Shown here: positions 14,172-17,780 of the stretch, piece by piece | Layout of the letters: every line of letters begins with the position of its first letter | How positions within the stretch are numbered: the stretch's first letter is position 1 | Source: a virus | Taxonomy: Duplodnaviria; Heunggongvirae; Uroviricota; Caudoviricetes | IMG/VR virus record: IMGVR_UViG_3300031760_000004 | Location: 28,294-92,293 of that record | Reading direction: 5' to 3' (one strand) | Length of the DNA stretch: 64,000 nt | The notes under the pieces: generated by a model | What the model saw: the letters and a program-made list of their open reading frames with translations, nothing else | Database searches by the model: none | Told to the model about the DNA's origin: nothing | Position numbers and translations under genes: made by a program

Positions 14172-14231
14172 GCTTAAAAAAGGCCCTGAAAAGGGTATAA
14201 ACACATAGAAGGAATGGGTTAATCCTTCTAT
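14172..14231 (+). promoter_or_regulatory. Conserved intergenic module, copy 1: CTTAAAAAAGgCCCTGAAAAGGGTATAAacacat plus hairpin AGAAGGA...TCCTTCT
   Basis: One of three near-identical modules (also 17194 and 17720). Each has a CCCTGAAAA(c)GGG mini-palindrome, a TATAA box and a downstream stem-loop. It lies upstream of the 14369 gene. Confidence 0.4.
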
Positions 14232-14368
14232 TAGCCGAAAGGCGTTTGCGGCGCGGGTCCGGGTGGATTCGCGCCTTCTCTTTACGGCGCCGGCCCGGGT
14301 GGGTCGGCGTCATTCTTTCACCGCCCCTGCGCAATGCGTTCGGGGCACATGTCCAAAGGAGGACAAAA

Positions 14369-14854
14369 ATGATACTTGCTACTCTGTTCAACAGGTGGGT
14401 CGAAACCGACCCGAATTCCGTTCATCACGGTGCGGACCTTCCCGATGAGGGCGTGGCCATCGACATTGATGGACATGTGTTCAACCAGTTCGTGAAAGAT
14501 CGCGGCTGGTGGGAGTGGGAATGGGAGGACACGGGTCGGACCGTGGCTATCCCGCTGGCGCTCCGCTTTGCCTTCAAAGAAGTCGAGGCGCGCTGCGCCA
14601 TGGCTGAAAAGGCCGTGGCGGCTTACAAGGAGACTGAGAGGAAGTTCCATGATGTGGCAGCCAAGGATCCCGCCACCGCGTGGTGGCCCGGAGGGGCCAC
14701 TCCGGGCAGCCTTACCGACAAGGTTGAGGCGGACAAGTGGGAAAAGGCCCTGGACACCTCGCACCGCGCCGAGCTTGAAGCATGGCGTCTACGCGACGAA
14801 GCGGTCGACAAGCTGAATAGGCTCGCCGAGCCTCTTCTAAAGGTTGTGGCGTAA
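14369..14854 (+). CDS. Hypothetical protein (W-rich WWEWEWED motif)
   Basis: Internal Met with ribosome-binding site AAAGGAGGACAAAAATG within ORF 14246..14854. Confidence 0.5.
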   Translation: MILATLFNRWVETDPNSVHHGADLPDEGVAIDIDGHVFNQFVKDRGWWEWEWEDTGRTVAIPLALRFAFKEVEARCAMAEKAVAAYKETERKFHDVAAKDPATAWWPGGATPGSLTDKVEADKWEKALDTSHRAELEAWRLRDEAVDKLNRLAEPLLKVVA

Positions 14855-15090
14855 TGAAAGTTCTTCTACTGGGGGACTTGAGCCCAGACGGTACCGTTCC
14901 GTCAATTCCGTACAAAGCCGTTCCGGTGGCTTCTTTCGAAGAGGCCAGAGACTGGGTGCGGCATGATTCCACGCGATTAGGCCTTAGGGCCGAATTGCGT
15001 GAGAACGAAGGTTGGTGGTGGGATTATTTCAAGACTGATGGAGAGCGCGTGTATAGGTACTACGTACGCATGCTCGACCTGCACAAATAA
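14854..15090 (+). CDS. Hypothetical small protein
   Basis: 78 aa. ATGA start/stop overlap with the upstream gene. Followed by a terminator. Confidence 0.45.
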   Translation: MKVLLLGDLSPDGTVPSIPYKAVPVASFEEARDWVRHDSTRLGLRAELRENEGWWWDYFKTDGERVYRYYVRMLDLHK

Positions 15091-15094
15091 TTGA

Positions 15095-15130
15095 AAGGCC
15101 CGTCCCTGAAAGGGGCTCCGGGCTTTTTCT
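15095..15130 (+). terminator. Rho-independent terminator (repeat family, copy 1)
   Basis: GGCCCGTCCCTGAAAGGGGCTCCGGGCTTTTTCT: nested GC stems plus a T-run. Confidence 0.6.
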
Positions 15131-15160
15131 CAACACCAGCTAACTTCAGGAGAAAACATC

Positions 15161-15388
15161 ATGAGCACGATGCTTGACAATGTCAACCACCCCCTCGTCA
15201 AGCTCCGCATCGTCGACAACCTCGACACCTTCGCGGAGCTGGTCGTAAAGGCGGCAAAAGCCGCCGATGAGGTCTACGAGGCCTCGGTACAGCGCGATGA
15301 CAAAAGCGCTGACGCACTACTAAACGACCCCAGGCTCGAAGCCCTGTGGGACCTCGAGGCCTTTTTCGAGGGGTGGATCGACAACTAG
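15161..15388 (+). CDS. Hypothetical small protein
   Basis: 75 aa. Ribosome-binding site GGAGAAAACATCATG. Flanked by terminators. Confidence 0.45.
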   Translation: MSTMLDNVNHPLVKLRIVDNLDTFAELVVKAAKAADEVYEASVQRDDKSADALLNDPRLEALWDLEAFFEGWIDN

Positions 15389-15391
15389 CAA

Positions 15392-15428
15392 AAGCCCGTC
15401 CCCGCAAGGGGCTCCGGGCTTTTCTTTA
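15392..15428 (+). terminator. Rho-independent terminator (repeat family, copy 2; GCAA tetraloop)
   Basis: AAGCCCGTCCCCGCAAGGGGCTCCGGGCTTTTCTTT. Confidence 0.65.
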
Positions 15429-16365: not shown

Positions 16366-16430
16366 TGCCTTTGTTCGCGGCGTTGTTCACGATTCTCCTT
16401 CTGGAGCTCATTGTAAAGGAGTAGGGCGCG

Positions 16431-17180
16431 ATGCTCTCGAAGTACATTTGGAACAGGATCAGGCTTTTGTGGGGTTTTATGACAGGCAACACCAGAATCG
16501 CGGACCGCGGCGACACGGCGGTGGTATGCGTCGGAATGCAGACTTCGTCGAAGTACGGGGCGTGCCCCGGGGCGCAGGTGGACTCCGACTCGATGGCGTC
16601 GCTGCTCGCCAGATACGGCAACGTGCAGCTGCTTCAGAACGGCGGGGCGACAGTTTCGTCCGTCTCGGCCGTCATGAAGGCCGGAGCCGAAAAGAAGCTG
16701 TTCATATTCTACTATTCGGGACATGGCGGGCAGGGCAAGGACGCCAAGGGCCAGAACGGGGTGTCCGAGTACCTGTGCCTCAACAACGGCCCCCTGCACG
16801 ACTACGACATCTGGAGCATCGTGTCCCAGGCGAAGGGGCGCGTCGTCATGGTGTTCGACTGCTGCCACTCGGCCACCATGTTCAGGGACCAGTCGGCAGA
16901 ACCGGAAGAGCCGTTCGACAACGCCGGCTTCTCGTTCTCCATGCTGCAGGGGCCGCTGGCCCTTGGGGAGGTCAATCTCCTGGTATGGTCCGGATGCCCG
17001 GCCAACAGCTATTCATACGGGGACGCCAACGGCGGAGTGCTGACGAATGGGCTTCGCAAGGGGTTCAGCGAGTCGGACACCTACGACGACGCGTGGAGGC
17101 GCATGGAGCGTGCAGCGAGGAGCCAGAGACCGGCGAGGACCGTGATCGGTTCCGGCTTCGGCGGCCTGGTGTTCAGGTAG
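16431..17180 (+). CDS. Metacaspase / peptidase C14 caspase-like protease
   Basis: 249 aa. Catalytic His motif FYYSGHGGQ and Cys motif VFDCCHSAT match the metacaspase HG / D-x-C-H-S dyad signatures. Confidence 0.7.
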   Translation: MLSKYIWNRIRLLWGFMTGNTRIADRGDTAVVCVGMQTSSKYGACPGAQVDSDSMASLLARYGNVQLLQNGGATVSSVSAVMKAGAEKKLFIFYYSGHGGQGKDAKGQNGVSEYLCLNNGPLHDYDIWSIVSQAKGRVVMVFDCCHSATMFRDQSAEPEEPFDNAGFSFSMLQGPLALGEVNLLVWSGCPANSYSYGDANGGVLTNGLRKGFSESDTYDDAWRRMERAARSQRPARTVIGSGFGGLVFR

Positions 17181-17193
17181 CCGGGGAGCGCCG

Positions 17194-17274
17194 CTTAAAA
17201 AAGACCCTGAAACGGGTATAACTACATAGTCGGAAGATTTACTTCGGACCGTCCGGGTGGGCGGTCCTTTTTCG
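17194..17274 (+). promoter_or_regulatory. Conserved intergenic module, copy 2 (CTTAAAAAAGaCCCTGAAAcGGGTATAActacat plus hairpin), followed by GGACCGTCCGGGTGGGCGGTCC-TTTTT stem-loop
   Basis: Between the metacaspase gene and the 17257 gene. The second hairpin has a T-run and may terminate the LpxR-metacaspase transcript. Confidence 0.4.
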
Positions 17275-17628
17275 TCTTCCGCGCATAACTTGAACTGGAG
17301 GTTCACCATGAAAGCTGAAAGACAACTCGAAATCGCAAACAAGCTGGAGGCGCACGAACGGATGTTGTTCACACCGTTTGCGTGCCTGTCACTCGGGCTT
17401 CTGCCCGTGATGTTCATAGGCGTGTTCTGTATCGGCGGGTACAGCCTGTTCACGAGAATCGTGGGATGGGTGTGCTTCGCCTACATGCTGGTCACCGTTT
17501 CGCTGTTCTTCGCGATCCTGATCCTGCATTCAGCGGAAGTCTGGTTCAGAGACCGGTGGTGGAGGAAAACGGAAGACCCGTGGAAGGTCTGGCAAATAGA
17601 CCACTACGGAAAGATCATCGACGACTGA
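17257..17628 (+). CDS. Small integral membrane protein (2 TM)
   Basis: 123 aa. LSLGLLPVMFIGVFCIGGYSLFTRIVGWVCFAYMLVTVSLFFAILIL. Ribosome-binding site GGAGG. Confidence 0.5.
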   Translation: MGGPFSSSAHNLNWRFTMKAERQLEIANKLEAHERMLFTPFACLSLGLLPVMFIGVFCIGGYSLFTRIVGWVCFAYMLVTVSLFFAILILHSAEVWFRDRWWRKTEDPWKVWQIDHYGKIIDD

Positions 17629-17632
17629 GCTA

Positions 17633-17670
17633 AAAGCCCGTCCCCGCAAGGGGCTCCGGGCTTTCTTTTA
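17633..17670 (+). terminator. Rho-independent terminator (repeat family, copy 3)
   Basis: AAAAGCCCGTCCCCGCAAGGGGCTCCGGGCTTTCTTTT, identical core to copy 2. Confidence 0.65.
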
Positions 17671-17719
17671 CCCCTTTGTAAACAGGTTGTCGACAGCCTG
17701 TCAACATGTCTCAGAAGGC

Positions 17720-17780
17720 GTGAAAAACCCCTGAAAACGGGTTATAACCACTTATCGGGAAAGGTTAGTTTTTCCGGAGG
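17720..17780 (+). promoter_or_regulatory. Conserved intergenic module, copy 3 (gtGAAAAAcCCCTGAAAACGGGTTATAAccactt plus imperfect hairpin)
   Basis: Third copy of the 14172 / 17194 element, upstream of 17987 and the zinc-ribbon membrane-protein genes. Confidence 0.4.

Follow-up and report, generated by a model that had tools for sequence, protein, structure and literature searches.

A probable promoter class with structured, attenuator-like leaders in a family of large uncultured phages

In a stretch of 64,000 nucleotides (nt) from a tailed phage (Caudoviricetes; positions 28,294 to 92,293 of IMG/VR record IMGVR_UViG_3300031760_000004; called the window below), three intergenic elements on the same strand, at 14172-14208, 17193-17229 and 17718-17755, combine a TATAA box with a short palindrome and a hairpin. 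Our work suggests that they probably represent a promoter class of this phage family that drives moron-like or early units with attenuator-like leaders: a motif of two boxes with fixed spacing recurs in related phages, it lies at the 5' edges of exchangeable gene units, and the RNA behind it is predicted to fold from its first nucleotides. As an element type, a phage promoter class with structured, attenuator-like leaders is familiar. The metagenomic contig that includes the window (ENA ERZ27256908) is 190,763 bp long, and two thirds of the genome lie outside of the window. Motif, conservation, placement and RNA structures were computed; promoter activity is deduced, and so are the sites where transcription starts, its termination and the enzyme involved. 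A preliminary description of this DNA had considered a promoter or a 5' untranslated structure without a -35 box, with a special palindrome and with a link to the loop of a nearby terminator: the promoter and the 5' structure are retained here, the other three points are not.

A bipartite motif with fixed spacing

The three copies were confirmed at their positions by the sequence itself, by a matrix scan and, for copies 1 and 2, by a repeat finder:

14172-14208, plus strand: predicted promoter core of copy 1, GCTTAAAAAAGGCCCTGAAAAGGGTATAAACACATAG, with the -35-like box CTTAA (14173-14177), an 18-nt spacer, the palindrome CCCTGAAAAGGG (14184-14195), TATAA (14196-14200) and the predicted start A14207
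17193-17229, plus strand: predicted promoter core of copy 2, GCTTAAAAAAGACCCTGAAACGGGTATAACTACATAG, with CTTAA (17194-17198), the palindrome CCCTGAAACGGG (17205-17216), TATAA (17217-17221) and the predicted start A17228
17718-17755, plus strand: predicted promoter core of the more diverged copy 3, GCGTGAAAAACCCCTGAAAACGGGTTATAACCACTTAT, with the variant box GTGAA (17720-17724), the palindrome CCCTGAAAACGGG (17729-17741), TATAA (17743-17747) and the predicted start A17754

Copies 1 and 2 have the layout GCTTAAAAAAG-N-CCCTGAAA-N-GGGTATAA-NN-ACATAG, starting at 14172 and 17193, and copy 3 keeps CCCTGAAAACGGG and TATAA with GCGTGAAAAAC as its upstream part. The 17-nt core CCCTGAAANGGGTATAA occurs twice exactly in the window (0.25 occurrences expected). 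With a position matrix built from 12 sites, i. e. copies 1 and 2 plus ten sites in relatives, the copies score 40.2, 35.8 and 20.7 bits, the first two partly by construction because both went into the matrix, and only these three places in the window reach 14 bits. The strict pattern (C/G)T(T/G)AA-N18-TATAA with a G two bases before TATAA fits all three: a gap of exactly 18 nt separates TATAA from the upstream box, which reads CTTAA in copies 1 and 2 but GTGAA in copy 3. The earlier statement that there is no -35 box does not hold, because every site found has a -35-like (C/G)T(T/G)AA at this distance upstream of TATAA.

The same signal, with a different spacer, is present in the intergenic DNA of the relatives, about 30 contigs from many metagenome samples that were gathered via homologues of the terminase and of LpxR (their loci are designated L0xx). 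These contigs are about 180-210 kb when long and vary in GC content from 38 to 66% (window: 60%); several presumably stem from rumen studies, as we read the record labels. A search of window and relatives for CTTAA and TATAA separated by 18 or 19 nt gave 13 sites, all with a spacing of 18 nt and all with a G at -14, two bases before TATAA, even though this base was not required. A looser pattern yielded 39 distinct sites. In the stretch that follows TATAA, these also conserve an A (+3), a T (+6), an R (+7) and a G-run (+11 to +13); the few sites on the opposite strand among them are probably false matches. The resulting consensus is (C/G)T(T/G)AA, an A/T run, a GC-rich and an AT-rich segment, C-n-G-G-(T), TATAA, n-n-A-n-W-T-R and a G-run. 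The GTGAA box of copy 3 is also found in L047 and L071, and CTGAA occurs in L045 and L052. Scanning 300 kb with the matrix gave 24 places with at least 14 bits, as compared to 1-3 in shuffled sequences of the same length; L056 and L059, the loci with polymerase and structural genes, had no such place. Among IMG/VR relatives, the motif is still present where terminase identity has dropped to about 50% and the GC content to 38%. A scan of IMG/VR for the exact motif was discarded: its 32 matches all fell in unrelated low-GC contigs, and their number equals the estimated chance level.

The placement of the motif fits a promoter. According to the gene tables, the sites are nearly all co-oriented with the neighbouring genes, and 16 of 38 sites have a terminator-like hairpin upstream, the T-run of which starts 20-36 nt (mostly 20-24) before the box. 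Thus, the comparison with related phages supports the promoter reading: a bipartite motif with fixed spacing recurs after terminators and at the 5' edges of cassettes in sense orientation. We propose that the -35-like box with its A/T run, the 18-nt gap, the G at -14, TATAA and n-n-A-n-W-T-R would be read together, with transcription starting at the R. A local duplication that left these copies as remnants without activity is, by contrast, extremely improbable. Over 43 nt, copies 1 and 2 do share 86% identity (repeat family D11) at a distance of only 3 kb, and the preliminary description had regarded an occurrence in only three copies as the mark of such a remnant. However, about 30 related contigs of different sample origin contain the motif, with its spacing unchanged, at about 39 distinct sites whose flanks are unrelated, and the similarity among the copies ends exactly at the motif borders.

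The palindrome in the spacer, CCCTGAAA(A/C)GGG, has arms of 3-4 bp and a loop of 4-8 nt, with 12-13 nt common to the three copies; CCCTGAAA also occurs alone elsewhere in the window. The spacers vary among relatives, even from promoter to promoter of a single one, and most of those in relatives have no inverted repeat, which speaks both against a family-conserved operator and against a hairpin promoter. What is conserved family-wide is a GC-rich/AT-rich/GC-rich composition, of which CCC-TGAAAA-GGG is a strong instance. Judged from these sequences, the palindrome is the form that the spacer pattern takes in this phage rather than a required feature of the family. The 12-13 common nt can be explained by paralogy, and an operator in this lineage is possible. 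A promoter of the N4 type was rejected: N4 promoters form a stem of 5-7 bp with a 3-nt loop just upstream of the start and are read by a giant single-subunit virion polymerase, whereas the palindrome has short, unconserved arms and a longer loop and the polymerase of this family is of the multisubunit beta/beta' type.

An operator for a phage repressor or a Q-like antiterminator, which would co-regulate the three units and allow passage through leader terminators, seems improbable, even though a number of observations are in its favour. The 12-13 nt are kept in all three copies despite the diverged flanks of copy 3, whereas elsewhere promoters within the genome of one relative do not share spacers; CCGAAAACGG in the nearest relative, L054, and CCTGAAAAACAGG in one site of L045 occupy the same place; and the gene at 15161-15388 lies behind the terminator at 15094 without a promoter of its own. 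Moreover, at lambda PR', which combines a Q-binding element with the terminator tR' in the 6S RNA unit, Q binds between -35 and -10: this is the position of the dyad, and in copies 1 and 2 terminator-like hairpins follow within about 100 nt of the start (45-110 nt). Against this stand the short arms of the dyad, the possibility that a recent duplication accounts for the shared bases, and the family-wide composition of the spacer, because of which a short dyad arises easily. In about 50 window proteins scanned with Pfam and PHROG, we detected no sigma factor, no repressor, no antiterminator of the Q family and no other DNA-binding protein, and the initially transcribed region contains nothing that clearly resembles a -10-like pause element. 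Unlike at PR', the dyad is not conserved in relatives, and three small units rather than one late operon would be controlled.

Even more improbable is a lambda-type nut site, in which the boxA-like GCTTAAAAA and the boxB-like GCCCUGAAAAGGG would act as RNA on read-through transcripts. In lambda, boxA is CGCTCTT(T)A, and boxB has a 5-bp stem with a GNRNA pentaloop. Copy 1, with GCT..TAAAAA..GCCCTGAA.AAGGG, is the best local match to nutL (CGCTCTTAAAAATTAAGCCCTGAAGAAGGGC) in the window (score 29), and copies 1 and 2 have no terminator between them and the upstream genes but terminators downstream. Yet one of 40 shuffled windows reaches this marginal score, the boxA match is partial, the stem of copy 1 has 4 bp with a GAAA tetraloop, and the stems of copies 2 and 3 are broken by U.C or C.C mismatches. 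The relatives, which keep CTTAA-N18-TATAA without a hairpin in the spacer, largely refute the idea, as their pattern of conservation fits a promoter and not an RNA hairpin. In addition, a nut site has no use for TATAA or the G at -14, the deduced start lies downstream of the element, and no arginine-rich N-like protein was seen downstream.

The apparent link between the palindrome and the terminator at 15095 was likewise rejected. The apex of this terminator (15094-15134) does carry CCCTGAAAGGGG, as described previously; however, its sister terminators at 15390 and 17632 have CCCCGCAAGGGG (GCAA) instead, so that the common feature is a GC stem with a GNRA cap, and the match to the promoter motif is probably a coincidence.

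Structured leaders and exchangeable gene units

We infer from the conserved R located 7 nt after TATAA that transcription starts at A14207, A17228 and A17754. The following leader structures are predicted behind these positions:

14205-14231, plus strand: first hairpin of copy 1, ATAGAAGGA / TCCTTCTAT with the loop AUGGGUUAA, starting at the predicted 5' end
14250-14285, plus strand: leader hairpin 1 of copy 1, an 11-bp GC stem with a GGGU tetraloop (14250-14275), then TTCTCTTTAC; terminator-like
14286-14321, plus strand: leader hairpin 2 of copy 1, an 11-bp stem with a GGGU tetraloop (14286-14311), then ATTCTTTCAC; weaker, terminator-like
17229-17285, plus strand: leader of copy 2, with a hairpin at 17229-17249 and a 9-bp GGGU-capped hairpin at 17246-17267, then TTTTTCGTCTT
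17756-17986, plus strand: leader of copy 3 (about 230 nt), with a hairpin at 17756-17776 and a weak hairpin plus GTTTTACC; it ends at the ribosome-binding site in front of ATG 17987

A hairpin thus follows TATAA in all three copies, 4-8 nt on, as had been noticed before, and the idea of a 5' structure can be extended: significant structure is predicted right from the start of the leaders. Base pairing sets in at positions 1-8 in all of the 18 leaders that were folded, with a mean z-score of -2.6 for their first 70 nt (window leaders of copies 1 and 2: -4.5 and -3.1). The first hairpin of copy 1 is present both in the centroid and in the minimum-energy fold of 70 nt. Alternative pairings are predicted as well: CAUUCUUUC in the region of leader hairpin 2 of copy 1 can pair with the 5' GAAGGAAUG. 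The small hairpin and the GGGU hairpin of copy 2 overlap by 4 nt; the minimum-energy fold has an outer helix CGGAAGA / UCUUCCG that encloses the GGGU hairpin, and it pairs the 5' arm of the small hairpin with a segment past the U-run. The folds of copies 1 and 3 contain comparable long-range pairings. Stem-loops at the 5' terminus of the ompA type stabilise bacterial and phage mRNAs, and the helix within 1-8 nt of the predicted 5' end resembles them; the 5' structure may protect the message.

The second feature of the leaders is the GGGU-capped GC hairpin. A terminator scan flags 14250-14275, 14286-14311 and 17246-17267, all three followed by U-rich tails, so that hairpins with a T-run stand between promoter and start codon at 14250-14285, 14286-14321 and 17246-17278 (in copy 3, there is only the weak hairpin). 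GGGU caps 5 of the 20 tetraloop hairpins in the 160 nt after promoters, as compared to 14 of 2030 in the whole data set. These five, three in the window and one each in L043 and L045, come from three phages and have different stems; a sixth, outside of this count, is found in L046 about 450 nt downstream of the promoter. In the literature searched, the C-GGGU-G apex is not described as a tetraloop class, and nothing was found on this phage family either. According to our model, the RNA would fold into a 5' helix from its first nucleotides and, in copies 1 and 2, would then meet the GGGU-capped hairpins with their U-rich tails, where part of the transcripts would stop as RNAs of 45-110 nt; the downstream gene would depend on read-through, i. 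e. on attenuation. The GC hairpins with U-rich tails are like those of known leader terminators and attenuators, but in contrast to known attenuators no sensing mechanism is evident. Neither the window nor six related loci matched Rfam 15 at the gathering score. Beyond a 31-nt block, CCGAAAACCCCTCGAAAGGTGAGGC (17841-17871), that is 93.5% identical between the leader of copy 3 and L043, no sequence is shared with the leaders of relatives. The leader of copy 3 also contains CCGGGTGG (17835-17842), which occurs seven times in the window, four of them within these leaders.

Tail genes on one side and a run of small genes on the other enclose the 3.6 kb in which the three copies lie, and the genes downstream of the copies are ORFans:

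14369-14854 and 14854-15090: ORFans of the copy 1 cassette
15094-15134, plus strand: intrinsic terminator (family D8), end of the copy 1 cassette
15161-15388: ORFan behind this terminator
15390-15430: sister terminator (family D8), followed by a sigma70-like promoter, TTTACC-17-TGcTATACT, that precedes lpxR and the gene of a caspase-like protein
17632-17672: sister terminator (family D8), end of the copy 2 cassette, which encodes an ORFan of 106 amino acids (aa)
17987-22600: string of ORFans behind the leader of copy 3

Every window copy is followed by an open reading frame (ORF) with a good ribosome-binding site and without another promoter. L054, whose LpxR is 90% identical, is the nearest relative, and the alignment of its conserved genes with the window extends to window positions 14142 and 17183; in place of the stretches opened by copies 1, 2 and 3, L054 carries unrelated DNA that shows no similarity to them. 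On this comparison, the layout is that of exchangeable cassettes, each led by a putative promoter at the 5' edge of a non-homologous gene unit, and each promoter would open a short self-contained ORFan unit bounded by terminators. Morons in the lambda and HK97 literature are promoter-gene-terminator cassettes inserted between conserved phage genes. The window units resemble them since they end in intrinsic terminators (15094, 15390, 17632) and lie between conserved genes (those for a tail fibre-like protein, LpxR and the caspase-like protein), where they are replaced in L054. They differ in that the window phage looks virulent and large rather than like a lambdoid prophage, and in that all cassettes use one promoter type of the phage family instead of assorted host-like promoters.

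Points against the model and the identity of the polymerase

Several observations weigh against a promoter class of this kind. First, the match to known promoters is incomplete: the -35-like box (C/G)T(T/G)AA(W), at a fixed spacing of 17-18 bp, agrees with TTGACA at only 3-4 of 6 positions, and position -7 is A, C and C in the window (A11/C14/G2/T12 over the 39 sites) rather than T, so that this is not a canonical sigma70 promoter. Second, the attenuator-like features are not uniform. The whole leader of copy 3 is no more stable than its shuffles (z = 0.14), and the GGGU hairpins of the relatives lack U-tails, which indicates that termination in the leader is not a conserved property. Third, in distant relatives a promoter of this class lies just past the terminase stop codon and points into the terminase gene (minus strand: L066 11810, L068 7126, L072 11892, L073 11768, L074 11843, L079 4931, L081 11875); about 70-100 nt further on, there is a terminator-like hairpin, and no obvious ORF follows. 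These sites could be small or antisense RNA units. Finally, relatives encode an RNA polymerase of their own, a fused beta/beta'-type protein of 1456-1458 aa with a beta' C-terminal subunit of 620 aa, and a second, more canonical promoter motif, TTTGTGGTAnnAT, recurs in the family. This extended -10 motif has a T at -7 and is found at 5487-5499 and 33715-33727 in the window, directly upstream of the structural operon (5560) and of a helicase gene (33750), as well as in L054 (291, 17635) and L043 (9704, minus strand). As TTTGTGGTAnnAT keeps the T at -7, the two promoter classes are perhaps served by different enzymes.

The third point bears on an unlikely alternative, namely that the main products are small non-coding RNAs, each unit consisting of a promoter, 45-110 nt of structured RNA and a terminator, with the ORFs served mainly by other transcripts. 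In addition to the terminase-edge sites, the terminator-like hairpins at +43 to +104 in copy 1 and at +18 to +39 in copy 2 would fit, as would stretches of more than 1 kb without genes after promoters of this class (L043 19626-20748 and L051 15817-17063; no Rfam match). Moreover, transcripts from upstream can reach the ORFs because no terminator stands between the upstream genes and copies 1 and 2. However, each window copy precedes a translatable ORF that has no other promoter, the U-tails of the copy 1 hairpins are weak and those of the relatives' GGGU hairpins are missing, the leader sequences are not conserved, and no Rfam family is matched.

Sigma70-family factors read such bipartite promoters with a spacing of 17-18 bp by their domains 4 and 2. 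Because of this layout and spacing, we consider a sigma-dependent multisubunit polymerase as the enzyme that would read the motif, with a slight preference for the host holoenzyme over a phage-directed enzyme. The invariant TATAA provides T-12 and A-11; the T at -15 of the extended -10 TG is not conserved across the sites. Taken together, the fixed bipartite spacing argues for a sigma-type factor, and the variable -7 and the odd -35 box argue against a textbook host promoter. The clustered strong early promoters of T7 (A1, A2, A3) and of T4 are read by the host sigma70 holoenzyme, and those of T4 have their own extended consensus. The class described here shares with them the -35/-10-like arrangement with 17-18 bp in between, the G at -14 that extended -10 promoters have, a consensus that is phage-specific and off the host optimum, and a few clustered copies among small genes of unassigned function. 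It differs from them in the -7 base of the window copies, in having CTTAA/GTGAA rather than TTGACA or GTTTAC, and in that the phage family carries its own multisubunit polymerase.

It is a tentative possibility that this phage polymerase and/or a phage sigma-like factor reads the motif instead of the host sigma70 holoenzyme. One of the polymerase genes is located on the same 190,627-bp contig as L043, the terminase of which is 86% identical to that of the window, and for this reason the window phage very likely has the polymerase, too. In L056, a protein of 486 aa has a weak Sigma70_r4_2 match. Moreover, the motif is kept across phages of 38 to 66% GC, lacks the T at -7 and the TTGACA preferred by the primary sigma factor of the host, and coexists with the more canonical extended -10 class in the same genomes. 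On the other hand, neither a polymerase nor a sigma homologue was found in the 64-kb window, and their presence is deduced from a relative; the motif leads variable ORFan cassettes, as is typical of host-read early or moron units, and is absent around polymerase and structural genes. In addition, the promoters of the known phage multisubunit polymerases (phiKZ and AR9 type) consist of short motifs close to the start and lack a -35 box. The further-reaching proposal that the motif is the first promoter consensus for the multisubunit polymerase of this family or its sigma-like partner, with the C-GGGU-G hairpins binding a phage factor for read-through or translation in a self-contained module that is not host-type, seems rather unlikely. 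The polymerase loci are L056 17231-20894 and 5566-7026 and L059 10001-16599, and some homologues carry inteins. Genes adjacent to the polymerase were scanned with PHROG, without any indication as to whether the virion packages the enzyme.

With respect to the host, a scan of reference genomes for LpxR gave no match; the LpxR homologues belong to the phage family, with bacterial matches of at most 30% identity. The strong Shine-Dalgarno sites of the window phage presumably argue against a host from the Bacteroidota. Such hosts have been predicted for one clade of gut jumbo phages that encode NAD genes (PMC11662467), and the window phage could not be placed in this clade.

Neighbouring features and meaning for the phage family

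The window contains no tRNA genes, and a search with the window gave no nucleotide match among GenBank phages. Its genes encode tail proteins (10469-14149), the terminase (22602-24329, minus strand), an SbcC-like protein, helicases, a family A DNA polymerase, a UvsX-like recombinase, and a set for NAD salvage consisting of NAPRTase, NAD synthase and a cytidylyltransferase-like/Nudix protein (55133-56434, 32784-33701 and 26073-27194), as well as a C5 DNA methylase (61460-62701). The lipid A deacylase LpxR adjoins the caspase-like peptidase (both in 15460-17180), and LpxR homologues with 48-90% identity are present in many contigs of the phage family.

Several other sequence features were observed in these genomes. 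An 18-bp palindrome, CAGGTTGTCGACAGCCTG (about 17684-17701), lies between the terminator at 17632-17672 and copy 3, where it is accompanied by TGTAAACAGG (together about 17676-17712), and L054 has a 200-bp AT-rich array of related TTGACA(A/G)GTTGT / GTAAAC repeats (11830-12020) upstream of its single promoter of this class; these regions may be a separate operator or operator array. Just upstream of the tail gene at 10469, A-tract repeats GC(C/T)(G/A)AAAAAT recur about 11 bp apart (10344-10440) and look like intrinsically bent DNA. A GC hairpin ending in CCCC-TTACCTAT stands directly before the ribosome-binding site of a conserved gene at 19160-19202 and at the orthologous sites of L043, L045 and L054. 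Gene-free regions of L046 (15900-16710, 18460-18770 and 11810-12070) contain more than 20 small hairpins CAATCCG-N4-8-CGGAAG, and a TTTACC tail ends most terminators of the phage family.

The results provide a usable consensus, (C/G)T(T/G)AA-N18-TATAA with a G at -14 and a predicted start 7 nt after TATAA, for widespread uncultured large phages, a family that carries its own RNA polymerase, an NAD salvage set and a deacylase for the lipid A of the outer membrane. This consensus marks the 5' borders of exchangeable gene cassettes and thus aids the annotation of these phages. Taken with TTTGTGGTAnnAT as a second motif, it suggests that these phages have two or more transcription classes, and the recurrent GGGU-capped leader hairpin is a candidate regulatory RNA. 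Current concepts are not changed by these findings, which offer a resource for annotation and for hypotheses on how these phages express their genes.

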